This document shows positions 30,216 to 45,663 of a stretch of DNA of 64,000 nucleotides, one piece after another (the stretch's first letter is position 1; each line of letters opens with the position of its first letter). The stretch comes from Vulcanimicrobiota bacterium (GTDB lineage: Bacteria; Vulcanimicrobiota; Xenobia; Xenobiales; JADMJV01): positions 1 to 64,000 of the forward strand of contig JBFWNU010000001.1 of the NCBI GenBank assembly GCA_050250895.1, written 5' to 3'. Made by a program: the position numbers and the translations under genes. Below the pieces are notes generated by a model, which was not told where the DNA came from, did no database searches, and saw nothing but the letters and a program-made list of their open reading frames with translations.

Positions 30216-30941
30216 CTAGCCGTCGATTTGGCGTAGCCGCTCTTCCAGCGCCCGGCATTTGCGCTCAGCTTCGGCCAGAGCCGCATCCTTCTCGGCCAGA
30301 GCAGTGTCCTTCTCTGCCAGAGCCGTGTCCTTCTCGGCCAGAGCGGCATCCTTCTCGACCAGAGCCGTGTCCTTCTCGGCCGAAGCCTCCCGGGGGGTCG
30401 GCAAGAGTTTGCCGTCAGGTCCAACCAGGCGGAGCTGCTCATCCACCACCACGAGCTCCAGGCCGATGGTCTCGAGAAAGAGCTTGCCCACCACGGGAAC
30501 GTAGCTGTCACCGGCCAGCCGTAACAGGCGCAGGCGCGGGTCGAGATACTCCTGGCGGGGGTCGAACAGCACATACTCTTGCACGCCCATCATAGCGTAG
30601 AGGCGCTGCTTCTTGCCCAGGTCCTCGTTGCGGGTCGAGGCCGAGGTAACCTCGAAGACCACATCGGGCGCCTTGCCCTCGCGCCAGAGCAGATAGTGGT
30701 TGCGTGGCCGCTTCTCGATGCCCAGAACGACCAGCACGTCGGGAGCGAGATGCTTGCGTTTGTCGCCCTGCTGGTAAAACAGCAAAATGTTGCCGGAGAC
30801 GTAAACCTGCGGGTCGTCGCGAAAGTAGTCTGAAAGCGTCTCGATGAGCAGGAACATCTGATCCCGATGGAGGTCAGTCTCGGCCATCGGCTTGCCGTCG
30901 CTGGTGGGATATTCGAGATCGTCTGGGTGGATGTCTAGCAT
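30216..30941 (-). CDS. Uma2 family (PD-(D/E)XK) endonuclease-like protein with heptad-repeat tail
   Basis: YPTSDGKPMAET, APDVLVV, PDVVFEVTS, EYVLFDP; AEKD(T/A)AL heptad repeats. Confidence 0.9.
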   Translation of the reverse strand: MLDIHPDDLEYPTSDGKPMAETDLHRDQMFLLIETLSDYFRDDPQVYVSGNILLFYQQGDKRKHLAPDVLVVLGIEKRPRNHYLLWREGKAPDVVFEVTSASTRNEDLGKKQRLYAMMGVQEYVLFDPRQEYLDPRLRLLRLAGDSYVPVVGKLFLETIGLELVVVDEQLRLVGPDGKLLPTPREASAEKDTALVEKDAALAEKDTALAEKDTALAEKDAALAEAERKCRALEERLRQIDG

Positions 30942-31071: not shown

Positions 31072-31635
31072 CTAGCCTTCGAGCTGGCGTAGCCGCTCTT
31101 CCAGCGCCCGGCATTTGCGCTCAGCTTCGGCCAGAGCCGCATCCTTCTCGGCCAGAGCAGTGTCCTTCTCGGCCAGAGCGGCATCCTTCTCCGCCAAAGC
31201 CGTGTCCTTCTCCGCCAAAGCCGTGTCCTTCTCGGCCGAAGCCTCCCGGGGGGTCGGCAAGAGTTTGCCGTCAGGTCCAACCAGGCGGAGCTGCTCATCC
31301 ACCACCACGAGCTCCAGGCCGATGGTCTCGAGAAAGAGCTTGCCCACCACGGGAACGTAGCTGTCACCGGCCAGCCGTAACAGGCGCAGGCGCGGGTCGA
31401 GATACTCCTGGCGGGGGTCGAACAGCACATACTCTTGCACGCCCATCATAGCGTAGAGGCGCTGCTTCTTGCCCAGGTCCTCGTTGCGGGTCGAGGCCGA
31501 GGTAACCTCGAAGACCACATCGGGCGCCTTGCCCTCGCGCCAGAGCAGATAGTGGTTGCGTGGCCGCTTTCGCTCTTCCTCGCTCTGGTAGCTTTCATCC
31601 TACCACAGTAGGGATCCGATGGCGAACGAGTCTGC
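31072..31635 (-). pseudogene. Second near-identical Uma2 copy lacking the start codon and ~76 N-terminal codons
   Basis: Near-identical to copy 1 including the upstream region, but the equivalent of 30714-30940 is deleted (junction at 31569/31570). Confidence 0.85.
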
Positions 31636-32574: not shown

Positions 32575-32610
32575 AAAGGCAGAAGGTGGATTTTTTCACA
32601 GAAGGTGGAC

Positions 32611-32874
32611 ATGGCGCTCAATATCAAAAACAGTCGAACCGAGGAATTAGCGCGGCAGGTGGCTCTCGAAACCGGAGAAAATCTAACCACAGCAGTAACC
32701 GTTGCGCTCGAGGAAAGGCTGGAAAGGCTCCGTGGCAGGCGGCGAACCCCCGACCTGCGTCAGGTCCTTAACGAGATCTCCCAGCGTTGCGCAGCCCTAC
32801 CAGACTTGGACGCTCGCTCTACGGACGAGATTCTCGGCTACGATGACGTGGGAGGCTTCGACGATGATTATTGA
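32611..32874 (+). CDS. vapB: VapB antitoxin (Rv0623-like)
   Basis: MALNIKN...LARQVA...GENLTTAVTVALEERL...DEILGYD; overlaps PIN toxin gene. Confidence 0.88.
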   Translation: MALNIKNSRTEELARQVALETGENLTTAVTVALEERLERLRGRRRTPDLRQVLNEISQRCAALPDLDARSTDEILGYDDVGGFDDDY

Positions 32875-33253
32875 TGCCTCAGCGCTGGTGGCAATCTTGC
32901 TTGGCGAACCCGAGGCCGCCATCTTTATTCAGGCTATCGCGACAGCGGGCAAGCGCCTGGTTGCAGCAGTTTCGGTTCTCGAGACCGCTATCGTGGTGGA
33001 GACCAAGAAAGGCCCCGCTGGCGGACGTGAACTCGACTTGTTCCTTCACGCCGCTCAAATCGACGTAGCGGCCATGACCTATGAGCAGACGGAGTTGGCC
33101 AGATGGGCGTATCGGCAGTTTGGAGAAGGACGACACCCGGCTCGCCTGAACCTGGGTGACTGCTGTTCTTATGCGCTGTCAAAGCACTCTGGGGAGCCCT
33201 TGCTGTACAAGGGCAAAGACTTTACGCTGACCGATGTCGACTCGGCGCTGTAG
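32864..33253 (+). CDS. vapC: VapC PIN-domain toxin
   Basis: MIIDASALVAIL, LNLGDC, LLYKGKDF. Confidence 0.92.
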   Translation: MIIDASALVAILLGEPEAAIFIQAIATAGKRLVAAVSVLETAIVVETKKGPAGGRELDLFLHAAQIDVAAMTYEQTELARWAYRQFGEGRHPARLNLGDCCSYALSKHSGEPLLYKGKDFTLTDVDSAL

Positions 33254-33266
33254 ACGGCCACGATCT

Positions 33267-34086
33267 CGTCCCAGAACCGCCACCAACCCATAAAAACGCC
33301 ACCCGCTCCTCCGTGGCCCCCCCGCGGACCTCCGCGGCTTCCACCAGGTCGAGCACCCTTCAAAATGCACGGCCCCCACCCATTGCTACTATTACTATTC
33401 TAACGTGGGGTCCCCACCAAGCCTGAACCAGGCTGGTCCCGGTCAGCCGACCACGGTCTCGTCCAAAGCCCTCAACTTCTTAAATCCGTCCCAGAACCGC
33501 CACCAACCCATAAAAACGCCACCCGTGCCGGCAACCGCCCCCTCCTCCGTACCCCCCCGCGGACCTCCGCGGTTTCCACCAGGTCGAGCGCCCTTCAAAA
33601 TGCACGGCCCATTGCTACTATTACTATTCTAACGTGGGGTCCCCACCAAGCCTGAACCAGGCTGGTCCCGGTCAGCCGACCACGGTCTCGTCCAAAGCCC
33701 TCAACTTCTTAAATCCGTCCCAGAACCGCACCAACCCATAAAAACGCCACCCGCGCCGCAACGCCCACTCCTCCGTGGCCCCCGCGGACCTCCGCGGTTT
33801 CCACCAGGTCGAGCGCCCTTCAAAATCCGCCCCCCCCACCCATTGCTACTATTACTATTCTAACGTGGGGTCCCCACCAAGCCTGAACCAGGCTGGTCCC
33901 GGTCAGCCGACCACGGTCTCGTCCAAGGCCCTCAACTTCTTAAATCCGTCCCAGAACCGCCACCAACCCATAACCACGCCACCCGCGCCGCAACGCCCAC
34001 TCCTCCGTGGCCCCCCGCGGACCTCCGCGGTTTCCCCAAAGTCGAGCGCCTTCTGCCCCTCGGCGCCTCTGCGCCTTTGCGGTTTC
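33267..34086. repeat. Non-coding tandem array, ~3.4 copies of a 220-231 bp unit
   Basis: Unit starts CGTCCCAGAACCGC at 33267, 33487, 33716, 33947; internal palindromes CCGCGGACCTCCGCGG, GTGGGGTCCCCAC, AGCCTGAACCAGGCT. Confidence 0.92.
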
Positions 34087-34101
34087 CACAACCAAAGCCG
34101 A

Positions 34102-34689
34102 CTAAAACTCCGAGAATTGACCCCGAGACTTCTTCTCGACATGAGAGATGGCCATGCCGGCCAGGGCGCCGAAAGTGCTCCACCACCAGAAGAAGCGAAA
34201 CAGGTCAAAGTGGATTAGGCCCATCACCGCCCCGAAGAAGCCGCCGATGCGAGCCGAATCGGATTGATAGCAGAGGCTGTTGGTGGCCCCGAGGATGGCG
34301 CCCAAAATCAGGCCGTAGACCAGGTTCCAGCCTAGAAAATAGCCGAAGGCCGTGGCCGTGATCGCGCCCACCTGGCTGGCCGATTCGGCATAGGCTCCCC
34401 ACAGCATGCTGGCAAAGAAAGTGTGATAGATGGCCGAGGGGATGCCCCAGCACAAGGAAGCGATCAGGCCGGCCTTGATGCCCTGGCCGAGGTTCGAGTC
34501 GCGGTCTTTGTTGATGGGTTTGGGGGCCGGCGGCCCCGAGGGGGCCATCACGGCGCCGTTGACCACCCCGGCGGCCATCGAAGGGTGGGCGGCCACGGCC
34601 ACCTCGTCAAAGGTCTGTTCGCAACTGTAGCAGGTAGGATCGGTGGCTCGATTGGAGGAGCCGCAGTGGGGACAATTTCGGTAGGCCAA
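34102..34689 (-). CDS. Zinc-ribbon membrane protein (hypothetical)
   Basis: CPHC...CYSC followed by several TM helices; likely TTG start at 34689. Confidence 0.7.
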   Translation of the reverse strand: MAYRNCPHCGSSNRATDPTCYSCEQTFDEVAVAAHPSMAAGVVNGAVMAPSGPPAPKPINKDRDSNLGQGIKAGLIASLCWGIPSAIYHTFFASMLWGAYAESASQVGAITATAFGYFLGWNLVYGLILGAILGATNSLCYQSDSARIGGFFGAVMGLIHFDLFRFFWWWSTFGALAGMAISHVEKKSRGQFSEF

Positions 34690-34781
34690 GACAACTTCTC
34701 TTTTCTGCAAAATGAGCTGGAATGATATTTCCCCGGAAGAAATGTCGACTCCTTTCGCGTTCGCGAGGTTTCACCCGGGCT

Positions 34782-34790
34782 TGTGGATAA
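34782..34790 (-). promoter_or_regulatory. Single perfect DnaA-box consensus
   Basis: TGTGGATAA (reverse complement TTATCCACA) in the divergent intergenic region. Confidence 0.35.
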
Positions 34791-34801
34791 CTCCTAAGCC
34801 T

Positions 34802-37800
34802 ATGGATCTAGCCCAATTCTCGGGCCTCACTCTCGAGCGACAACTGGCCTACCTTGACGAGGCCCTGGCCGAGGGGCAACGGGGCCAACTGCTAGAGATG
34901 GCGGCGGCCCTGCGGGATGGCGCGCCGATCAGCTGGCTGGTGGGTCGACTGCGCCAGCTGGGGTGGTTTGGCCAGCCGGCCAACCAGCAGTCTTTCGGCC
35001 ATTTCCTGACGGGTCTTGAGGACACCGCCATCCAGGCCAGCCTCAAAGGGGCGGCCGGCGACCCGGGCGTGGCCGCGGCCGTGTTCGAAGCCCTGCGCTC
35101 CATCGAGCTGGCCAAGCTCTCGGCCATGTGCTTGCTAGACCGCTTTCTCAAGCACAACGACCCCGACCGGCGCGACCGATACCTGGGGCAGTTGGTCGAG
35201 GAGTGCTGCAACTTGCTCGAGGGCGGCCAGTGCCCAAGCCTAGAACAACTGGTGCGCCTGCCGGCCCGGGCGCTGCACCGGCTGCAACAGGCGGCCCAGC
35301 AGGGCGGGGTGACGGACCGGTTTGAACAAGCCCGGCAACAGCTGGCTCGCCAGGTCATCAGCATTCTCGAAGCCGCCCCTAAGGGCGTCTCGCAGTCCAA
35401 CGCCGAAGAGCTGCTGTCGCGCCGGGTCTACACCGACCCCGGGCACTTTCTCATCGAGCTGCTGCAGAACGCCGACGATGCCGAGGCCCGCACCTTCCGG
35501 GTCGAGTTCTCGACCCAGCACGTGCTGGTCTGGCACGACGGCCTGCCCTTTGACGCCCGCGACCTGGTCGGGGTGACCTCGATTGGCCAGACCACCAAGC
35601 GCAAGCAGCAGATCGGCTTCTTCGGAGTCGGCTTCAAGTCGGTCTACGAGGTGACCGACCGGCCCCGCATCTATTCCGATGTCTATCAGTTTGAAATCGC
35701 CGACGTGTCCATTCCTCGCTACCTGCACCAGCGACCCGAGTGGCTGCCGGCCGAAGGCACCGCTCTCATCTTGCCGTTACGGGCCCCTGACGATCCCGAC
35801 CGCTCACCGGAAGGGCTGTTCCAGCGGGCCCGCCGCCTCGACCCCTGCGTGCTGTTGACGCTCCGAGAGCTGCGTTGTATCGAGTTTCGGCTGGCTGACG
35901 AGAGCTATCGCCTGGAGCGTTTTGATCAGGGCGAACTGAGCGCCATCCAGGTCGGGTCGACCCGCCGGGTCTTTGCCCTGGAACGACGCCGTTATAGCTA
36001 CCAGGGCGCCCGCGAGCAGAATCGGCCCGACAACACCGAGGTGTGCGTGGGCCTCTTGCTGAGCGAGCCCGGCCGGCCGCTGGCCTTTCCGCCCAAAGCG
36101 GCCACCGTCTACAGCTATCTACCCACCGACGAACATACCGGGCTGAAGTTCTTCATCCAGGGCCATTTCGATGTCCCTGTCGACCGTGAGCGCATTTCGC
36201 ACGAGTCTGACTGGAACCGCTGGATCCTGGCCCAGGTGCCCGAGCTGGTCGAGGCCCTGGCCCGGCGCTTCGGAGCCGGCATCCTCGAGGTGTTGCCTCT
36301 GGCTGAAGAGATGCTTTCGCCGCTATTCTCCGGTCTGCCCGAGGCCATTTATGCCCGTCTGCAAGAGGTCGAGTTGCTGCCCGGGCACGACGGCCAGCTG
36401 CACCCGCCCCGGCGGGTGGTGCTGGCCCGGCCAGAAGTGGTCTCGCTTTTCGCCGACCACTCGCAGCGTTACTGTTTTCTCTCGCCCGAGGTGGGCGAAC
36501 GCCCGCGCAAACTGGCTCAGGCCCTGGGTTGCCGCGAGTTTGGGGTGGAAGAGTTGGTGTCCGACCTGGAACAGGGTCTGCTACCGCCAGCGGTGGACTG
36601 GCCTCACTTCTACGATCTGTTGCTCGAGGAGCTCGAGCGCCTCGAGCGCCAGCAAAGCGGCCTGGACGAGTGGGTAACCCGACTGCAGGCCTGCCTGCTG
36701 GTGCCCGATCGTGACCAGCAGTTGCGCCCCCTGAATCAGGTGGCCCGAGCCGAGGGGCACCTGGCTGAGCTGTATGCCGGACTCGTGCCGCTGGTCTGGC
36801 CAGAACTGGTGGGCCGTCCGCGGGTCGAGACCCTGTTTGACCGGCTGGGGATGCGGCGTCTGGACGGGGAACGCCTGCTCGACGACCTGGCCCGCGACGT
36901 GACCCCCTTTCTGGCCCGTTTCGAGGCGCTCTATGCCTATCTCACCGAGGCTCCCTGGACGGTCACCGAAAGGGCCTGCCTGCTGCCCATCTTCCCCGCG
37001 GCCGGCGGCGGATTTGGCCGGCTGGCTCGCAACCCCGACGATGTGGAAGGCCTGTTTCGGGCCGACCCTCCCGAGGTGGTCGAGCTGCTCGAGGCACGCC
37101 GCTATCTGGCTCACCATTTTGCCGACCATCCCGTCCTCGAGACCATCCGGGTCGAGTCCACCGGCCTCAGCGAGGTGCTACTGGCCATGGCGCGGGGCCA
37201 CTGGCAGCCCGACGACGGCCAGAAAACCAAGCTGCTCGAGTTGCTCTTGTCCCACGGCCAGAGGCTGACAGCGGCCAATCTGGGGCTGCTGTTCGAGCTG
37301 CCGCTCTTCGCCAATCAGGCCGGAGCCTTCTGCCGACTGTCCGGCCTCTACCGTCCGGCCTCGCCGGCCCTGGTCGAGCTGCTCGGGCCCCAGTTCTTTC
37401 TTGACGCCGAGGCCCTTTCAGGCCAGGTGGCCGCCCGCCTCAACCTCTTGCCCTATCTAGAGCAGGCCACTCCCGAGTTGCTGGTGGCCTGGCTGGCCGA
37501 AAGGAAGTTGCCGCCCACCCAGACCCTGGCCTATCTGGCCAGCCAGGTCCAGAGCCTCAACCAGGATGTGCTCGAGCGCCTTTTGAGCCTGCCCCTGTTC
37601 GACGGGCTGCCGCTGGGCCGCCGGCCCCAGGCTGGCGTCTTGTGCCGCTGCCAGCCCGGTTTCGAGCAAGTCTTTGCGTGCCTGGGCGTCAACGTGCTTG
37701 AACCTGAGCAATCGCAACTGGTGGCGCCGCTGCTCGAGGCGGCCGGCTGGACCCCTCTGGGCCTCGAAGAGCTGGTCTCGACCCTGGCCGACCGCCAGCC

Positions 37801-40800
37801 CCAGCTCGAGCAGTTAGAAGTGGTGCAATCGGCCCTGCTGGCTCATCGACAGGCCTTGCTCGAGCGCTTTTCCACCTCGCTGCTGGGCAGCCTGGCCGTA
37901 TGGCGAAACGCAGCCGACCAGGTGGTGTCGGCGAGCCGACTGGTCGATGATCCCGAGCTGCTCGAGCTGTTGCCCGATCCAGGCGCCACTCCCGTCGAAC
38001 AGCTTTTACTGCCGGCGCTAGACGACTATCAGACCTGCAAGCCCCAGGTCTATCTCAACGACTGGCTGCGCCGCAAGGCCCGCCTGGGTCAGCCCCTAGA
38101 AGCCCAGCCCGTGCCCCTCAACGAGCTCGAAGGGGTGATGGCCGTGGCCCGCCGTCTGCCCGAGGGGCAGTTGCTGGTGGTCACTGCCGACCAGCGGCTG
38201 GGCGACCAGTTGTTGCCCATGGCCGCACCGACCACCATCGCACTTTTACCCGACCAGGATTTTCTTCATCCCGACTGGCCCCCCGAACTCGCTCCGGGAG
38301 CGCGCCGCTTGCCGGCCTACGCCGTGCTGGCCAGGCTGATCGACCTGGAACAGCCAGAAGTGCGCCAGCGTTTCTACGGCTGGTTGCTCGAGTGCCAGGG
38401 CGAGATATTCACCGACCCCGAGGCCCGCCGCAGCCTGGCCGAAGACAAGCTGTTTCTCTCGTCAGGTGGACGCTGGCTGGCCGCCCAGGAGCTGGTGCTC
38501 GACCCCGACTTTCCCGATCTCGACATCGACTGGCTGCCTCACCCCGAGATCCCGGCCGAATGTCTCGAGCTGTTGCGGCGCCAACTCGACGTGGGCAGCC
38601 CCGACCCTGAAGAGGTGTTGCAGGCCCACCTGCTGCCCGCCTATCACGCTCGCCTCAAGCAAGGCCGCGAAGGGCCGCTGCTCGACTATATCATCAAGCT
38701 GACCACCCGGCTGCCGGCCCGCCTGCTGCGCGCGCTCGTGGGCTCTTTGCCGGTGCGCGACATCAGCGGGCTGGTCCAGCCCTTCGAGGCGCTGGTTCTG
38801 CCGCCAGCCCACTGCCCGCCGCTGGTCACTATCCCGTGCCCGGATGGCTATCAAGAACGCCGCGAATTCTTCGAAAAACTGGGCATGGCCCGGGTGCCCA
38901 GCCGCCATCACCTGGAGGCCGCCTTGCGAGTGACGGGGCTGGCCGACTGCGCGGCCCTGGTCACAAGTCTGGCTGCCTGGCTGCGCGAGCACGACCTATC
39001 CGAGCTGCGAACGCTGGCCCGAGACACGGCCTGGCTCTTCGATGGCCAGGCTAAAAAGCGTTATCCCACCGAGCTGTTGAGCCCCCACCCCGAAGTCGAG
39101 GCCCTGGCCGGCACCTTCCCCGAACTGTATCCCCATCCCGACCTGTCGGCCTTGCTCGACGCGCGCCTGCTCGAGTGGCTGGGGCTGCGCACGGCCAAAG
39201 ACCTCGATTTTCCTGATGTGGTGCGCAATCTGCTGGAGCGGGTCAAGGCTGGTCAGGCGGTCGGCCAGCATCTCTATCGCTTTCTCGAAGAGGGTCTGAC
39301 CCGCGGCTCGATCGACCCCGACCAGTTGCACCGAGCCCTGGCCGACCAGGCCTTCATTTACTGCGACGACGGCCGCTATCGCCGTCCCGATCAGGTCTTT
39401 GCGGTCCCGGTCTTTCGCTGGTTTGGCGACCGGCGCGGGTGTTGGGAGTCGGCCCGCGACTTTCCCCGCCTTTGCCAGCTCTTCTCCATCTCCGACCGCC
39501 TCGAGCCCTCGGCCATCCTCTCGTTTCTCGAAGAGATCGCCCGCGCCCCCGCGGCTTCGCTCGAAGAAGAACCAGCTCTGCCCCGCATGCTGCGAGCCTG
39601 TTACGCCGAACTGGTGGCCACCGGGTCGACGGTGCCCACCGCCTGGCCGGTCATCCTGGCCCGCGGCCCGCGCCTGGTGGCCAGCCACCGTCCGGGCCTG
39701 GTGCGCAGCGATACGCCGACGCTCGAGGCGCTTTTCGCCGAGGTCGGCGAGCTGTTGGTGGCCGAACCCGGCGGTCCGCAAGACGCGGTGGCCCTCGACA
39801 TCTTCTATGCTCGCCAGGGCATTCGCCGCCTGCGCGATGCCTATCGGGTCAGCGTCGACGGCCGTTCGGGCCGGGACGTGACCGAGCAGGCCGCGGCCGA
39901 ATTACTGGCCGTGCGCTCGCTCTTGCGGGCCCTGCTCGAGGTGGCTCCTCGCGTCAGGCTGCAACGGAGCGGCCTGGAAAATGGCGGCTGGCTCTACAAA
40001 GAGCGTCTCGGCGGTCTGGCGGGCACGGCCACGATTCGCCTCATCGACGGCCTCCAGGTGGTTTATCAACTCGACGGAGTGGGCTCGGTGTCGCGCCGGG
40101 CGGCGGCCGCCTATGACCCGGGTAAACCTGCTCTGCTGCTGGATCTGGCCAGCGCGCGCGAGCCGGGCCAGGCGGCCGTGGGCCTGGCCGAAGCCCTGGT
40201 GAGTTGCCTCTATGAGGGGCCGGGCCAGGAGCAGCTCGTCGACATCCTCGAGCTACTCATCCCGCTGGGTCGGGCCGAGGCCATGCACGCTTATCTCGAC
40301 CGCCGGCACTTTCCCGCCAGCGCCTCGGCGCGGCGTCCGGTGGATCTGCTGCTCGAGCGCCTGGGCGAGATTCTCGACTATCGCCTGCATGAGCGGCTGG
40401 CCCAGGTCTTTCCCCAACTGGCCGAGGCCGACTTCGGCCGTTGGCGAGGCGACGGCCTGGCCCCGCGCCTCGAGCCCCTGCTCGGCCAGCCGAGTTGGCC
40501 CCGCCAGGTGGCCACCCGCCTGCTCGACGAGCTGGGCCTCAAAGCGCCCGATGGCGAGTTGATTAGCGCCCTGGCCGAGATGCTGAGCCAGCCGCAGCTG
40601 TCCCTGCCCAGCCAGTTAGCGCCCAGCCAGCCGGCCCCGGCACCGGTGGCTCCCAGCCAGGAAGAACCCGAGATGGTGCCCGCCCCGGTGGCCGACGAGC
40701 CCGAACGACCGGCCTTTTGGGACCGCCTGCTCTCCTGGGTGCCGGCCGCTCGCCAGCCGGAAGAAGCCGGCCCCATCCAATTCCCCGACAACAGCCTGGT

Positions 40801-42043
40801 CCCGATGCCGGGGGTCTTGCCCCAACTGGGTCTACGCCCCGAGCATATGCGGCAAATGCTAGAAAACCCTCCCGAAACCCGTCTGACCCATCACCCGGCG
40901 CGGCTGTCGAGCCCTCACATCTACGGCCTGCAGGGAGTAGGCGGAAGGTTCGATCCGGCCGACCAGACCTATCTGCCGGTGGCCTTGAAACTGGGCAAAG
41001 GCACCGGCGTGTCGACCCGCCCCCTCACCCTCCGGGGGCGGGTGCTGCCCGGTCTGAGCCTTTTGCCGGTGCCCCTCTATAGCCGAATGAAAGAGCGTCC
41101 CCGCGTCTTTGGCCGAGCCGGCAGCGTGCGCATCAGCGGCCCCGACCCGCTGGGCCAGTGGTATCTCGAAGTGAAGGGCGAGCAATCGGTGGGAGTCCGC
41201 TACGAAGTCGAGCTGACCGAGATTCCGCTGCTCGAGGGCCGAGGCCTTCCCAGCCACGACCCTGCCCTGGTCGAGCCCACTATGCCTCTGGCCGAGCTGC
41301 CCCAGCGAGCCCAGCGCTGGATCGAACAAACCGGCCAGGCAGGTCTGGCCCCATGGCGGGCCGCCCAGCTGGCCTGCGAGTTCGTGCGCACTCACTATCT
41401 CTATGACGAAAGCTATTCGCTGCGACCCGAAGTAGAAAAAGCCCGCCGTCGCTTGCGCAGCGGGCAGGGCAACCACCATCTACAGCTTCTTCACGCTTCG
41501 GCCGACGAGGTACACCTGGGACGCGGCATCTGCTACGAGCTCAACCTGATGGTGGCCGAACTGTTGCGGCATCTCGAACTCCCTTCGCTGGTAGCCACCT
41601 GCTGGGTGTTCGACCAGGGAGCCCTGGATCGGGCCGACCATCTGGTCTGCCTGGCCCTGCTCGACTCGTCGAGCGGGCCCTGCCTGGTGCCGCTGGACGC
41701 CTGCGCCGACCGCCGCGGCCCGCGCCACATTCTGGGCCACGACCCCGAGCCTTCGCCCTGGGGAAGCGACCTCGCCTCGGAGCGCGAGCGCCTCGAGCAA
41801 GAGCTGGAAGTGCTGGCCCGGGTCTATCACCTGGTCTTCGACCGCCATCCCCCCTCCCCCGCCGCCGCTCGCGGCGAGCTCGCTCAGAAACTGGGCGAAA
41901 CGGCGCTAGGCCTCATGCTGGCAGCCGTGCGCGGCGACCTGAAAAAACTCGACCAGGTTCCGGAAGGCGTGGCGGACCTGGTCGTGCGGGGCTGGCTCAA
42001 AGTGCTCGAGCAGCCCGAATATTCGGTTGTGCCTAACGACTAG
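34802..42043 (+). CDS. Giant (~2410 aa) sacsin/NOV-like GHKL ATPase protein with C-terminal transglutaminase-like domain
   Basis: ELLQNADDA, HDGLPF, IGFFGVGFKSVY, FIQGHFDVPVDRE; C-terminal YLYD...GICYELN...DHLV...LDAC; start 34802 preferred over 34712. Confidence 0.85.
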   Translation: MDLAQFSGLTLERQLAYLDEALAEGQRGQLLEMAAALRDGAPISWLVGRLRQLGWFGQPANQQSFGHFLTGLEDTAIQASLKGAAGDPGVAAAVFEALRSIELAKLSAMCLLDRFLKHNDPDRRDRYLGQLVEECCNLLEGGQCPSLEQLVRLPARALHRLQQAAQQGGVTDRFEQARQQLARQVISILEAAPKGVSQSNAEELLSRRVYTDPGHFLIELLQNADDAEARTFRVEFSTQHVLVWHDGLPFDARDLVGVTSIGQTTKRKQQIGFFGVGFKSVYEVTDRPRIYSDVYQFEIADVSIPRYLHQRPEWLPAEGTALILPLRAPDDPDRSPEGLFQRARRLDPCVLLTLRELRCIEFRLADESYRLERFDQGELSAIQVGSTRRVFALERRRYSYQGAREQNRPDNTEVCVGLLLSEPGRPLAFPPKAATVYSYLPTDEHTGLKFFIQGHFDVPVDRERISHESDWNRWILAQVPELVEALARRFGAGILEVLPLAEEMLSPLFSGLPEAIYARLQEVELLPGHDGQLHPPRRVVLARPEVVSLFADHSQRYCFLSPEVGERPRKLAQALGCREFGVEELVSDLEQGLLPPAVDWPHFYDLLLEELERLERQQSGLDEWVTRLQACLLVPDRDQQLRPLNQVARAEGHLAELYAGLVPLVWPELVGRPRVETLFDRLGMRRLDGERLLDDLARDVTPFLARFEALYAYLTEAPWTVTERACLLPIFPAAGGGFGRLARNPDDVEGLFRADPPEVVELLEARRYLAHHFADHPVLETIRVESTGLSEVLLAMARGHWQPDDGQKTKLLELLLSHGQRLTAANLGLLFELPLFANQAGAFCRLSGLYRPASPALVELLGPQFFLDAEALSGQVAARLNLLPYLEQATPELLVAWLAERKLPPTQTLAYLASQVQSLNQDVLERLLSLPLFDGLPLGRRPQAGVLCRCQPGFEQVFACLGVNVLEPEQSQLVAPLLEAAGWTPLGLEELVSTLADRQPQLEQLEVVQSALLAHRQALLERFSTSLLGSLAVWRNAADQVVSASRLVDDPELLELLPDPGATPVEQLLLPALDDYQTCKPQVYLNDWLRRKARLGQPLEAQPVPLNELEGVMAVARRLPEGQLLVVTADQRLGDQLLPMAAPTTIALLPDQDFLHPDWPPELAPGARRLPAYAVLARLIDLEQPEVRQRFYGWLLECQGEIFTDPEARRSLAEDKLFLSSGGRWLAAQELVLDPDFPDLDIDWLPHPEIPAECLELLRRQLDVGSPDPEEVLQAHLLPAYHARLKQGREGPLLDYIIKLTTRLPARLLRALVGSLPVRDISGLVQPFEALVLPPAHCPPLVTIPCPDGYQERREFFEKLGMARVPSRHHLEAALRVTGLADCAALVTSLAAWLREHDLSELRTLARDTAWLFDGQAKKRYPTELLSPHPEVEALAGTFPELYPHPDLSALLDARLLEWLGLRTAKDLDFPDVVRNLLERVKAGQAVGQHLYRFLEEGLTRGSIDPDQLHRALADQAFIYCDDGRYRRPDQVFAVPVFRWFGDRRGCWESARDFPRLCQLFSISDRLEPSAILSFLEEIARAPAASLEEEPALPRMLRACYAELVATGSTVPTAWPVILARGPRLVASHRPGLVRSDTPTLEALFAEVGELLVAEPGGPQDAVALDIFYARQGIRRLRDAYRVSVDGRSGRDVTEQAAAELLAVRSLLRALLEVAPRVRLQRSGLENGGWLYKERLGGLAGTATIRLIDGLQVVYQLDGVGSVSRRAAAAYDPGKPALLLDLASAREPGQAAVGLAEALVSCLYEGPGQEQLVDILELLIPLGRAEAMHAYLDRRHFPASASARRPVDLLLERLGEILDYRLHERLAQVFPQLAEADFGRWRGDGLAPRLEPLLGQPSWPRQVATRLLDELGLKAPDGELISALAEMLSQPQLSLPSQLAPSQPAPAPVAPSQEEPEMVPAPVADEPERPAFWDRLLSWVPAARQPEEAGPIQFPDNSLVPMPGVLPQLGLRPEHMRQMLENPPETRLTHHPARLSSPHIYGLQGVGGRFDPADQTYLPVALKLGKGTGVSTRPLTLRGRVLPGLSLLPVPLYSRMKERPRVFGRAGSVRISGPDPLGQWYLEVKGEQSVGVRYEVELTEIPLLEGRGLPSHDPALVEPTMPLAELPQRAQRWIEQTGQAGLAPWRAAQLACEFVRTHYLYDESYSLRPEVEKARRRLRSGQGNHHLQLLHASADEVHLGRGICYELNLMVAELLRHLELPSLVATCWVFDQGALDRADHLVCLALLDSSSGPCLVPLDACADRRGPRHILGHDPEPSPWGSDLASERERLEQELEVLARVYHLVFDRHPPSPAAARGELAQKLGETALGLMLAAVRGDLKKLDQVPEGVADLVVRGWLKVLEQPEYSVVPND

Positions 42044-42489: not shown

Positions 42490-42918
42490 GTGAGCTTCAA
42501 TCAGGAACTCCTGCGCCACAGGGCAGCGGAGATCAGAGAAAACGCTGCTTTGCTCGAGAAAGCCGCGCTCGGTGGCGTCGACGACTTTCTCGCCGACCGG
42601 GACAAGCAAGATGCGACGATGTTCCGCCTGATAGTTGCCATCGAAGCTTGCCAAGCCATCTGCGCCCATCTGGCCGCCAGGCTCGCCACAGCAGCTCCGA
42701 GTTCTATGAGCGATTGTTTCGAGCGACTCGCTGCCGCGGGCGTCTACAGTGAAGACCTGGCTCAGCGCCTGGCTCAAATGGCGCGCTTTCGCAACTTGCT
42801 GGTGCACCGGTATTGGGTGGTGGATCTAGGGATGGTCCACGATTTTCTGGCCACCGGGTTGAGTGATTTCAGCGAATATCTCGAGGCCGTTGCCAAGGTT
42901 GTAGGAGAGGACCTGTGA
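42490..42918 (+). CDS. hepT: HepT-like HEPN ribonuclease toxin (DUF86)
   Basis: RNLLVHRY = R-X4-H-X-Y motif. Confidence 0.88.
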   Translation: MSFNQELLRHRAAEIRENAALLEKAALGGVDDFLADRDKQDATMFRLIVAIEACQAICAHLAARLATAAPSSMSDCFERLAAAGVYSEDLAQRLAQMARFRNLLVHRYWVVDLGMVHDFLATGLSDFSEYLEAVAKVVGEDL

Positions 42919-43307
42919 GCTACCCGTCAGAGGTTCTGGGCCCGGCTCTTACGCGGCTCGGGCCGGTGTTGGAGGAATGTCCCTTCCCTATCGTCATTTT
43001 GATGGGCTCGGCCGCTGAGGGTCGGCCCTTTCGCGACCTGGATCTCGCCTTTCTGTCAACAGGCTCGCCGTCGCTTACGGAAGTGCTGGTCTGGGGTGGC
43101 CGATTCGAGCGAGCGGCTGGTGTGCCGGTGGACCTGACTCCCCTCTCGGCGAGTTCGCTGGGCTTTCAATACGAGGCTACAAAGGGTCGAGTACTGCTCT
43201 GTCGCGACCCTGAGATGCTAGCCGATTGGAAGGAGCGTACCTGGCGCACTTACTTCGACCAGGAGCATCATTTCAGGGCTCACGCCCGCGATATCCTTAC
43301 TCGATGA
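42915..43307 (+). CDS. mntA: MntA-like minimal nucleotidyltransferase antitoxin
   Basis: GS-x8-DLD motif, VDL; 4-bp overlap with the HEPN gene. Confidence 0.82.
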   Translation: MSYPSEVLGPALTRLGPVLEECPFPIVILMGSAAEGRPFRDLDLAFLSTGSPSLTEVLVWGGRFERAAGVPVDLTPLSASSLGFQYEATKGRVLLCRDPEMLADWKERTWRTYFDQEHHFRAHARDILTR

Positions 43308-43809: not shown

Positions 43810-45663
43810 CTAGAGCGCCTCGGCGAGCAGCGCCAGCACCCGCTCCACCGCCTCCTCGACGCTCAGCGCGCGGGTATCGAGGCGAAGTTCGGGGTGACTG
43901 GGAACCTCATAGGGCGAACTCACGCCGGTGAACTCTTGGATCACGTTCTGGTCGACCAGTTTGTAGAGGCCCTTAGGATCCCGCTGGCGGCAGGTCTCGA
44001 GGTCACAATCTACGTGAATCTCGACAAAGCGCCCCTCGGGCACCAGGCTGCGCGCAAAGGCGCGGTCAGCCGCGAAGGGAGAGATCAGGCTGCATAGCAC
44101 GATCTGCCCGTGCAGATAAGCCAATCGAGCCACTTCGGCAACTCGCCGGATGTTCTCGCTGCGGTCCTCGGGTGAAAAACCGAGGTCGCTATTGAGACCG
44201 TGCCGCAAGTTATCTCCATCCAGGAACATAGTCGAACGACCGGCCTCGAACAGACGGCGTTCCAGGCCTCGTGCGATGGTCGACTTGCCCGAGCCCGACA
44301 GGCCCGTAAACCAGACCACGGCGGCCCGATGCCCATAACGGTGCTCGCGGTCGTGCAGCGGCACGGCGCCCGCTTGATAGATCACGTTAGTGGCCCGCTG
44401 CACCCTATGCGGAGTAACATCCTCGATGGAAGACGCGGCCCCGCGAATCATGCCGGCGGCCACCGTCGAGTTGGTATCGAGGTCGACCAGCACGAAGTTG
44501 CCCGTGGCGCGGTTGGTGCGGTAGTGGTCGAAGAAAAGAGGGGCCGTGGTCACCAGTTGGGCCCGGCCGATCTCGTTGAGGCCCAGGGTCGGCGACTGCA
44601 CCCGATGCATGCTATTGACGTCGATTTGATAGGTGAGTTCCTCGACGTAGCACCGCACCTCGCGAGTGGTGTGCATCAACCGATACGGGCTGCCCAGCTT
44701 CATCGGGTGCTCGCTCAGCCAGCACAGGGTCACATCGAGGTGAGAACTCACCTGAGGAAGGTTTCTTGTCCGCACCAGCATCGACCCGCGACTGACATCA
44801 AGCTCGTCTTCGAGGGTCAACACCACCGAGTCGCCAGCCACGGCCTCTTGCAAAGGGCCATCGTAGGTCATGACCGATTTCACCCGGGTGCGTTGACCGG
44901 TGGGCAGCTCGACCACATCGTCTCCGGGTCGAATGCGCCCCGAGCTGACCTGACCTGCAAAGCCGCGAAAATCCTGGTTCGGTCGCAGCACCGTCTGAAC
45001 GGGAAAGCGAAAATCCACGATGTTGCGCGAGACTCCGACACTGACGCGCTCGAGAAAGTTGAGCAGCGTGGGGCCGTCATACCAGGGCGTGTTCTGACTG
45101 CGATGAGCCACGTTGTCGCCGCGCAGGGCCGAAATGGGGACATAAGTGACGTTGGCGGCCTCGAGGCGCGAAGCGAACGCCTGGAACTCTTCGCTGATGG
45201 AGTTGAAGACACGCTGATCAAAGTCGAGCAGGTCCATCTTGTTGATGGCCACGAGCAGGTGAGGTATGCCCAGCAAGGTCGAAATAAAGGCGTGGCGCCG
45301 GGTTTGGGTGGTGATGCCTTTGCGAGCGTCCACCAACAAAATGGCAAGCTCGGCCGTCGAGGCGCCCGTCACCATGTTGCGAGTGTACTGCTCGTGGCCC
45401 GGCGTGTCGGCAATGATGAACTTGCGCCGCGGTGTGCTGAAATAGCGATAGGCGACGTCGATGGTGATCTTTTGCTCGCGCTCGGCCCGCAGGCCATCGG
45501 TCACCAGGGCCAGGTCGATCTCCTCGTCGCCACGCGAACGGCTGGCCTCCTCCACCGCCTCCCAGGTATCCTCGAAAAGCGATTTGGTATCGTGCAGCAG
45601 CCGCCCGATGAGGGTGCTCTTGCCGTCGTCGACACTGCCGGCCGTGGTGAAACGAAGAAACAT
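43810..45663 (-). CDS. cysNC: Bifunctional sulfate adenylyltransferase subunit 1 / APS kinase
   Basis: GSVDDGKST, DTPGHEQY, NKMD; C-terminal TGLSGSGKST, LDGDNLR, DPKGLY. Confidence 0.95.
   Translation of the reverse strand: MFLRFTTAGSVDDGKSTLIGRLLHDTKSLFEDTWEAVEEASRSRGDEEIDLALVTDGLRAEREQKITIDVAYRYFSTPRRKFIIADTPGHEQYTRNMVTGASTAELAILLVDARKGITTQTRRHAFISTLLGIPHLLVAINKMDLLDFDQRVFNSISEEFQAFASRLEAANVTYVPISALRGDNVAHRSQNTPWYDGPTLLNFLERVSVGVSRNIVDFRFPVQTVLRPNQDFRGFAGQVSSGRIRPGDDVVELPTGQRTRVKSVMTYDGPLQEAVAGDSVVLTLEDELDVSRGSMLVRTRNLPQVSSHLDVTLCWLSEHPMKLGSPYRLMHTTREVRCYVEELTYQIDVNSMHRVQSPTLGLNEIGRAQLVTTAPLFFDHYRTNRATGNFVLVDLDTNSTVAAGMIRGAASSIEDVTPHRVQRATNVIYQAGAVPLHDREHRYGHRAAVVWFTGLSGSGKSTIARGLERRLFEAGRSTMFLDGDNLRHGLNSDLGFSPEDRSENIRRVAEVARLAYLHGQIVLCSLISPFAADRAFARSLVPEGRFVEIHVDCDLETCRQRDPKGLYKLVDQNVIQEFTGVSSPYEVPSHPELRLDTRALSVEEAVERVLALLAEAL

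Follow-up and report, generated by a model that had tools for sequence, protein, structure and literature searches.

A giant single-gene protein of a Vulcanimicrobiota bacterium that joins a sacsin-clade ATPase to a predicted transglutaminase-fold module

The DNA analysed was a stretch of 64,000 nucleotides (positions 1 to 64,000 of contig JBFWNU010000001.1, assembly GCA_050250895.1, from a Vulcanimicrobiota bacterium), referred to below as the window. It carries a giant gene whose predicted product combines a sacsin-type ATPase, a repeat array and an apparently active transglutaminase-fold enzyme, a combination that appears to be uncharacterised. In molecular terms, we are confident that the protein consists of a single Bergerat ATPase, 7-10 repeats, a Pro-rich tether and a module like that of TgpA with a conserved Cys-His-Asp triad. 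A preliminary description of the window had postulated a single open reading frame (ORF) of ~2400 aa encoding a stand-alone fusion of a sacsin-like GHKL ATPase with a transglutaminase-fold domain. A product of 2,413-2,443 aa was indeed found in one frame of the + strand, and the fusion was supported by family hidden Markov models (HMMs), an AlphaFold2 model and residue conservation. The features are listed in Table 1, with residues numbered from the first ATG of the open frame.

The ATPase was assigned from several profile and sequence matches. Across the whole protein, the sole Pfam match was to PF25794 (SACS) at residues 240-331, with 52.9 bits against a cut-off of 32.8. The NCBIfam model NF047352 (P_loop_sacsin; sacsin N-terminal ATP-binding-like domain) gave 80.1 bits against a cut-off of 50, and the sequences of the solved sacsin Hsp90-like domains 5v44-5v47 matched at E-values of 4e-5 to 1e-4 (5v47: 4.4e-5). 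In GHKL ATPases, motif I is E-x3-N-x2-D and the Gly-rich motif III is G-x2-G-x-G. Both are complete here, as E249, N253 and D256 and as G302-F-F-G305-V-G307, respectively. They fall within ELLQNADDA (from residue 249, nt 35456) and GFFGVGFKS (from residue 302, nt 35615), the two motifs that had been reported for this region beforehand. When the 67 full-length homologues were aligned with MAFFT, the ATP-binding residues were found to be invariant: E249, N253, D256, G277, K296, G302, G305, G307 and K309 were present in 67/67, as was the tetrad D491-R492-E493-R494. The region of motif II (D-x-G-x-G, adenine contact) reads H275-D276-G277-L-P-F, in which G277 is invariant, D276 is <90% conserved and the second Gly is absent; the sacsin structure sequences deviate at this position too. 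From these sequence matches the protein is placed in the sacsin clade of GHKL ATPases, with ATP hydrolysis itself being predicted.

Outside the giant-protein family, the strongest matches were to the defence models of TmtA, the Tiamat protein. Nine PADLOC TmtA models, which carry no curated cut-off, matched. The best of these, PDLC03968 (E = 7.1e-52), aligned residues 237-746 with profile positions 69-586 of 1486; another match reached residue 896, and elsewhere the coverage was of positions 94-754 of 1563.

The C-terminal module was modelled by AlphaFold2 with a predicted local distance difference test score (pLDDT) of 88.4 and a predicted template modelling score (pTM) of 0.84. A Foldseek search of the PDB returned the periplasmic domain of TgpA (6g49) first, at E = 3e-7, followed by 3isr and 3kd4, both structural-genomics 'putative cysteine proteases'. 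With VIA-align, model residues 26-345 were superposed on residues 195-482 of the 6g49 chain with a Z score of 16.3 over 259 residues and a root-mean-square deviation of 3.9, at a sequence identity of 8-15%. Further Z scores were 10.1 for 3isr, ~6.5-6.6 for factor XIII and 6.0 for a LapG complex. Since the TgpA superposition spans both halves, the predicted beta-sandwich and catalytic core would both correspond to the two-domain module of TgpA. The helical tail that follows the core is found in only part of the family. On the N-terminal side, the first residues of the model (2001-2020) had a pLDDT of 49-59 and belong to the Pro-rich linker, which had been placed at ~40580-40720 in the preliminary description and was found there.

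In the model, the Cys-His-Asp order follows the canonical papain/transglutaminase layout. C2274 is the first residue of helix 274-287, H2310 is the first of strand 310-317, and D2329 comes directly after strand 324-328. Among 63 aligned C-termini, the Cys was kept in 62, the His in 62 and the Asp in 56. Six further residues were kept in 63/63, namely Y2229 (which opens the YLYD motif, nt 41396), H2261, G2270, G2272, E2283 and R2286, while E2276 and W2298 were kept in 62/63. The transglutaminase-type Cys-His-Asp order, first read from the letters, was thus borne out by the predicted fold and by conservation, and the C-terminus did model as a transglutaminase fold by AlphaFold2, Foldseek and VIA-align together. 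With the family's C-termini the module shared 30-48% identity. The transglutaminase model PF01841 was matched by 28 of 34 homologous C-terminal pieces at E ≤ 0.01 (best 2.8e-12), and precomputed PF01841 annotation was present in 10/71 full-length homologues.

Table 1. Features of the giant gene and its product, and genes discussed in the text. Positions are those of the window unless a locus is named.
Feature	Residues	Position	Strand	Remarks
Whole open frame	1-2443	34712..42043	+	uninterrupted; 2443 aa counted from first ATG
Likely start	M31	34802	+	2413 aa product; start used in the preliminary description
N-terminal region	~31-236	34802..35419	+	conserved; matches no known family
Sacsin/Tiamat-clade GHKL (Bergerat) ATPase and transducer-like segment	~237-503	35420..36220	+	PF25794, NF047352, TmtA PDLC03968, sacsin 5v47
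Alpha/beta repeat array, ~99 aa per repeat	504-1573	36221..39430	+	7-10 homologous copies; divergent insert 1087-1178
Post-repeat region	1574-1956	39431..40579	+	column conservation 0.47-0.54; no relation to repeats (hhalign)
Pro-rich linker	~1957-2025	40580..40786	+	from sequence; probably disordered
Predicted beta-sandwich	~2026-2180	40787..41251	+	strands at model residues 57-170; N-terminal half of TgpA-like module
Predicted transglutaminase/papain-like core	~2181-2345	41252..41746	+	Foldseek, VIA-align, conservation, PF01841 of homologues
C-terminal helical tail	2346-2443	41747..42040	+	helices at model residues 354-376, 383-394, 396-407, 419-425
Triad Cys	C2274	41531-41533	+	
Triad His	H2310	41639-41641	+	
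Triad Asp	D2329	41696-41698	+	
Two adjacent Uma2-family (putative restriction endonuclease-like) genes		30216-30941, 31072-31518	-	upstream
EEP-family phosphatase/nuclease				upstream of giant gene
VapB (PSK_trans_fac) and PIN toxin		32605-33253		upstream
Zinc-ribbon membrane protein		34102-34710	-	upstream, divergent
HepT		42490-42918		downstream
MntA-type nucleotidyltransferase		42915-43307		downstream; 4-base overlap with HepT
CysNC/CysH		CysNC 43810-45663	-	downstream; strand given for CysNC
Short sacsin-type ATPase L082		G000:C6:137377-137619	-	own genome, outside the window
Short sacsin-type ATPase L083		G000:C1:3261693-3261932	-	own genome, outside the window
Short sacsin-type ATPase L084		G000:C1:2000776-2001036	+	own genome, outside the window

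Between the ATPase and the linker, a hairpin motif (h-h-P/F/W...G...P/L) recurs with a period of ~99 aa, at residues 555, 662, 757, 863, 960, 1061, 1154, 1246, 1346, 1440, 1547 and 1645. The repeat count was examined by splitting the family alignment into 15 units of ~97 aa (12 with the motif and 3 downstream controls) and running hhalign on every pair. Ten of them (504-1086 and 1179-1573) were mutually related, with many pairs at 80-98% probability, while units 1087-1178 and 1574-1668 and the three controls gave ~0% against everything. Three rounds of hmmbuild/hmmsearch seeded with one unit recovered 7 copies in the giant protein at an independent E-value of ≤ 1e-3. The same iterated HMM found a median of 7 copies (range 3-8) over the 67 homologues, and the repeat number did not follow protein length (r = 0.31). 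Of the 12 repeats guessed at first, the hhalign comparison left 10 and the iterated HMM 7; the 'about ten' of the preliminary description was a fair estimate, with 7-10 as the supportable range. Column conservation was lowest in the repeat region (0.31-0.46), compared with 0.71-0.78 in the ATPase.

An AlphaFold2 model of residues 602-986, built from a 30-row alignment, had a pLDDT of 92.9. Each modelled unit consists of a few helices followed by a beta-hairpin, on which the motif sits. No credible solved relative of this model was found by Foldseek (best E 0.43) or by VIA-align over 48,161 chains (best Z 4.7). A kinship of the repeats with Hsp90 middle domains was considered and rejected, as it was represented by weak rows only (Z 3.6, probability 0.18-0.33) that amount to no evidence. 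Confidently modelled yet lacking a solved relative, the repeat unit is a target for structural work. In Pfam searches at E ≤ 10, residues 331-1096 gave DUF5632 alone, at a non-significant E of 0.053, and residues 1097-2003 gave no match. For the post-repeat region, the ESM Atlas returned hypothetical clusters and a weak fungal DUF8348/DUF3684 lead, with low recognition. The N-terminal region (residues 1-243) likewise had no Pfam match at E ≤ 10 and ESM Atlas scores < 0.8, and three of its residues, D69, P72 and R144, were kept in 66-67/67 homologues.

The start at 34802 is considered the likelier one because residues 1-50 were occupied in only 43% of the 67 aligned homologues. A public protein (P0002) that is 100% identical also begins at M31 and is 2413 aa long. 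Neither a sigma-70-like promoter nor an intrinsic terminator was detected by simple scans of the two gene ends. The 19-residue Kyte-Doolittle mean peaked at 1.38, so that no stretch reaches membrane-helix strength, and on this basis we take the protein to be cytoplasmic and soluble. The G+C content was 0.64-0.69 across the giant gene (window 34001-42000) and 0.61-0.63 in the flanking 2-kb bins; the raised value may stem from the Leu/Ala/Arg/Pro-rich composition or from an origin unlike that of the small flanking genes.

To place these features among known systems, the closest comparison is with Tiamat of B. cereus, which is described as an ATPase and single-stranded DNase whose defence depends on the ATPase (bioRxiv 10.64898/2026.09.30.754977). 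According to the same preprint, the middle region of Tiamat is variable and made of repeated folds, its nuclease is tethered by a disordered linker, and its C-terminal domain is proposed to serve as a constitutive dimer interface too. As far as that account goes, the giant protein is alike in being encoded by a single large gene with an N-terminal sacsin-clade GHKL ATPase and transducer-like segment, variable repeats and a probably disordered tether to a C-terminal effector. By analogy, the tetrad D491-R-E-R494 would sit where the preprint puts the transducer arginine. The preliminary description had stated that bacterial relatives of this ATPase usually end in nuclease-type domains such as DUF3883 and occur in conflict or defence contexts; both the published work on Tiamat and the TmtA match are in line with this. 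Where Tiamat has a PD-(D/E)xK (DUF3883) nuclease, the giant protein has the predicted TgpA-like beta-sandwich and transglutaminase fold instead; it is ~1.5-2x the length of the TmtA profiles (1063-1782 positions) and has 7-10 repeats, compared with the 1-6 TPR-like folds reported for Tiamat. Unlike Tiamat, it has no recurring helicase, methyltransferase or nuclease neighbours (81 loci clustered; 18 scanned). The preprint also describes 'Tiamat-like' proteins with helicases, peptidases or other domains in place of the nuclease. Among these, the peptidase type V-A is said there to carry a Schlafen-like domain, whereas none was detected in the giant protein. The words 'transglutaminase' and 'Myxococc' have no occurrence in the main text of the preprint, whose supplements might list such a type.

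The likeness to sacsin and NO VEIN lies in the ATPase clade (PF25794, NF047352, 5v44-5v47). NO VEIN ends in a DUF3883 nuclease according to the Tiamat preprint, and sacsin is described as having three ATPase-containing repeating regions together with DnaJ and HEPN domains (PMC3710099), whereas in the giant protein a single ATPase was found and neither of the other two domains. TgpA (PA2873 of Pseudomonas aeruginosa) shares the superposable two-domain module and the Cys-His-Asp triad; it is presented as a six-helix inner-membrane protein whose domain is periplasmic and for which transglutaminase activity was measured in vitro (PMC3507681). Here, in contrast, the module would form the cytoplasmic C-terminus of a GHKL ATPase. 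The effectors predicted for other conflict systems of bacteria also include transglutaminase-like peptidases (PMC8195603, PMC3710099). Giant HEPN-transglutaminase-helicase and BTLCP-type proteins, for which a part in conflict is predicted from comparative genomics, likewise join a papain/transglutaminase-fold enzyme to an NTPase-containing giant protein, but the partners listed in the relevant sections of those two papers differ (superfamily I (SF-I) helicase, HEPN, Vsr, STAND and MoxR-vWA), and a sacsin-type GHKL ATPase is not described there. Full-text literature searches for a fusion of a sacsin-type ATPase with a transglutaminase-fold domain turned up no account of one.

A word-indexed search with the whole protein identified 71 homologues, almost all of 2,300-3,100 aa, with source names that include 'sacsin N-terminal ATP-binding-like domain-containing protein' and 'transglutaminase domain-containing protein'. 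One of them, P0022, is named from a cultured myxobacterium, Paraliomyxa miuraensis. When the C-terminal 443 aa were searched with HMMER over 1.84 billion representatives, 174 proteins were found at E ≤ 1e-3. Among the best 150 of these, 87 were ≥ 1,880 aa with the match at the C-terminus and 63 were shorter (131-1,699 aa); many of the latter start inside the domain and look like contig-edge fragments. Judged from these sequences, the family is real but small and mostly of Myxococcota. Two of the homologues P0008, P0015 and P0060 have an extra PF14446 domain, and one relative of 1694 aa in this set is fused to histidine-kinase (PF00512, PF02518) and response-regulator (PF00072) domains. From such homologues it follows that the chassis is wired to other modules in some lineages.

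Eighty loci were collected from species-representative genomes, every one a metagenome bin, and taxa were taken from the record titles. Myxococcota-type titles accounted for 42, Deltaproteobacteria for 10, Obscuribacterales-type for 6, Vulcanimicrobiota/Eremiobacteraeota for 5 and Planctomycetota-type for 4; the remainder were unspecified Proteobacteria (5), 'bacterium' (6), Thermoleophilia (1) and Burkholderiales (1). Seventy rows entered a maximum-likelihood tree of the TgpA-like module, ten loci being omitted on account of short matches. Two clades were recovered, one of 24 rows and one of 46, both with 100/100 support. The window copy paired with locus L001 (100/100) inside a 19-row set (95/93) that also holds Planctomycetota, Myxococcota and Melainabacteria rows, and this pair was placed apart from five Vulcanimicrobiota-type rows. 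Gene tree and taxon labels were therefore incongruent; given the risk of binning errors and the unknown root, no transfer scenario was drawn.

Two cases of labelling deserve mention. L001, the closest copy of the C-terminal module (54-58% identical), lies on a 2.2-kb contig titled 'uncultured Burkholderiales bacterium', while the CysNC protein of the window is 92% identical to a protein named from 'Candidatus Eremiobacteraeota bacterium'; one of these conflicting labels is probably a binning or naming error. A Thermoleophilia (Actinomycetota)-titled copy is nested beside a Polyangia copy (L044, L059) with 100/100 support and short branches, reflecting either a recent transfer or a mis-binned contig.

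The module was then sought in 41 genomes, comprising the window's own and 40 relatives, and was present in 13. It occurred in 8/15 and 4/5 genomes of two families with 5-9 Mb genomes, and was not found in a third family of mostly 2-4.7 Mb (0/19) or in a fourth (0/1). Within genera the distribution was patchy (2/8 in one genus), and the copy of a same-genus genome was only 55% identical. In the 9.5-Mb genome from which the window comes, the module occurs once. Outside the window, this genome also encodes a canonical HtpG (L085) and three short sacsin-type/HATPase_c_3 ATPases (521, 510 and 797 aa; Table 1) that score above the NF047352 cut-off and may be effector-less Tiamat-like proteins.

The genes flanking the giant gene were also analysed. 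Both Uma2 proteins have a weak RNase_Y_N-like tail, and the second fits only the C-terminal part of the Uma2 model. The VapB/PIN and HepT/MntA genes form two toxin-antitoxin pairs, and the position between them had been put forward as consistent with a novel defence or proteostasis system. This argument was not supported, the flanks being specific to this genome: in tblastn searches (E ≤ 1e-5), none of the 16 neighbour proteins of the window was matched within the 20-kb stretches that surround the gene in five related genomes. Since conserved neighbours are lacking across the family, the two toxin-antitoxin flanks add little. When 3,510 flanking ORFs of 81 loci were clustered, the largest family comprised Ser/Thr kinases, which were rejected as a partner since they occurred at 12/81 loci, on both strands and at varied distances. 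The gene is stand-alone, without a conserved partner. A scan for defence models (PADLOC, E ≤ 1e-10) covered 101 neighbour ORFs from 18 well-flanked loci, 5 of 23 such loci having been dropped. Only two clear defence-system neighbours were seen in these 18 loci: a type II methyltransferase at L029 and, in a Myxococcales locus, a type I-E-like Cas3 gene that follows the giant gene at a distance of ~2 kb on its downstream side (L041:13406-16594, +).

Taken together, the protein can be read as a Tiamat-like ATP-gated clamp in which the nuclease effector has been replaced by a thiol peptidase or transglutaminase, and which acts in conflict or anti-phage defence; we regard this composite reading as evenly balanced between right and wrong. 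In such a mechanism, the protein would dimerise as Hsp90, MutL and the proposed Tiamat model do. ATP binding would shut the N-terminal gate around a ligand held by the fast-diverging repeat array, and the conformational cycle might then control the tethered thiol enzyme. The enzyme would form an acyl-thioester on a protein substrate, to be hydrolysed (peptidase or deamidase) or passed to an amine (cross-link). Peptidase or deamidase chemistry seems somewhat more likely than cross-linking, because the bacterial cytoplasmic members of the transglutaminase fold are mostly predicted peptidases; against this preference, the closest solved relative, TgpA, is a measured transglutaminase. Conflict or anti-phage defence is the likeliest biological role, though taken by itself we place it slightly on the doubtful side of even. 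The TmtA homology, the rapid divergence and the patchy distribution speak for defence; the gene neighbourhoods, where the earlier argument lay, do not.

Several observations weigh against this reading. The protein's own C-terminus is below the PF01841 threshold (12.9 bits against 23, E 0.14), and sequence searches of the PDB, by phmmer with 443 aa and with a 34-sequence profile, returned no transglutaminase (best E 0.3), so the predicted transglutaminase assignment rests on the homologues and the modelled structure. The TmtA match is confined to about the first third of the TmtA profiles, and both dimerisation and the coupling of the ATPase to the enzyme are drawn from analogy. In the PADLOC scan, 6/101 neighbour ORFs matched (Cas3, the type II methyltransferase, two kinases, an AAA protein and a partial DolB-like protein), of which we count four as generic kinase or AAA domains. 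Among 32 immediate neighbours, the 12 with a Pfam match (E ≤ 1e-8) were all different and, like the rest, housekeeping-like or unknown; they include an alcohol dehydrogenase, a ClpB-like AAA protein, LysR, GATase, astacin, trypsin, TetR and a TonB receptor. By tblastn, no copy was found on 72,556 plasmids or in 50,697 phage records. The gene is also single-copy and widespread in the two families with large genomes, a pattern that fits a cellular function as well.

Such a function is the main rival to defence, though in our judgement a doubtful one: a housekeeping proteostasis or remodelling factor, in which a sacsin/Hsp90-like, ATP-dependent chaperone scaffold binds endogenous clients through the repeats and the transglutaminase-fold domain trims, deamidates or cross-links them, for example in development or stress of bacteria with large genomes. 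The lack of copies among the plasmid and phage records, the heterogeneous and mostly non-defence neighbours, and the single-copy occurrence in 8/15 and 4/5 genomes of two families but not in 19 smaller genomes would all suit this role, as would the sacsin/Hsp90-related clade of the ATPase, sacsin being described as a chaperone (PMC3710099). It is less easily reconciled with the TmtA models as the strongest matches beyond the family, or with a same-genus copy of 55% identity and poorly conserved repeats, which would be unusual for a core chaperone. The patchiness within genera and the incongruent gene tree also argue against it, and no DnaJ or other co-chaperone domain was detected by Pfam in the whole protein or its segments. 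A different rival, which we consider improbable, concerns the enzyme: the transglutaminase-fold domain may be a structural or dimerisation module that has kept the triad, act on another amide substrate (small molecule or polysaccharide), or transfer acyl groups as arylamine N-acetyltransferases and amide synthases do. The fold matches include arylamine N-acetyltransferase 1w4t (Z 4.8) and the amide synthase GdmF, 8osv (Z 5.5); WbmE, a periplasmic member of the fold, is reported to deamidate O-antigen (PMC3507681), and the proposed dimer interface of Tiamat offers a precedent for a structural role. However, the near-invariance of the triad and of Y2229, H2261, E2276, E2283, R2286 and W2298 argues for catalysis, and TgpA stood far ahead of all other structural matches, with a putative cysteine protease and protein transglutaminases next. 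That the protein is merely an unusual-looking canonical Tiamat (TmtA) nuclease or true sacsin orthologue is hardly credible and was rejected on domain tests. The TmtA models do match at E 7e-52 and the sacsin domain models score above their cut-offs, but no DUF3883/NOV_C PD-(D/E)xK domain was found by Pfam in the whole protein at E ≤ 1 or in the C-terminal 443 aa at E ≤ 10. Among the 71 homologues, PF13020 occurred only in the most distant, P0072 (14% coverage). A single ATPase domain is present, DnaJ, HEPN and ubiquitin-like domains were not found, and the C-terminus is modelled as a TgpA-like fold.

Should the reading as a Tiamat-like clamp with a protein-modifying effector be correct, an ATPase-plus-repeat chassis that drives such an enzyme rather than a nuclease would thereby be revealed as a general sensor and actuator, and transglutaminase-fold chemistry would join the known outputs of single-gene immune or remodelling machines in bacteria. 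The strongest form of the proposal, that the family is the first immune-type GHKL clamp with covalent protein chemistry as its output, capturing a phage or cellular protein and then cleaving, deamidating or cross-linking it, is speculative and on present evidence unlikely; if true, it would represent a defence logic not yet shown for any Tiamat or sacsin relative. The mechanism of Tiamat was unknown until the 2026 preprint, and its eukaryotic relatives are of medical and developmental importance, sacsin in human disease and NO VEIN in plants. With E249 and C2274 offering clean separation-of-function mutants, the giant protein would then be a tractable bacterial model of how sacsin-type ATPases couple client binding to an effector.

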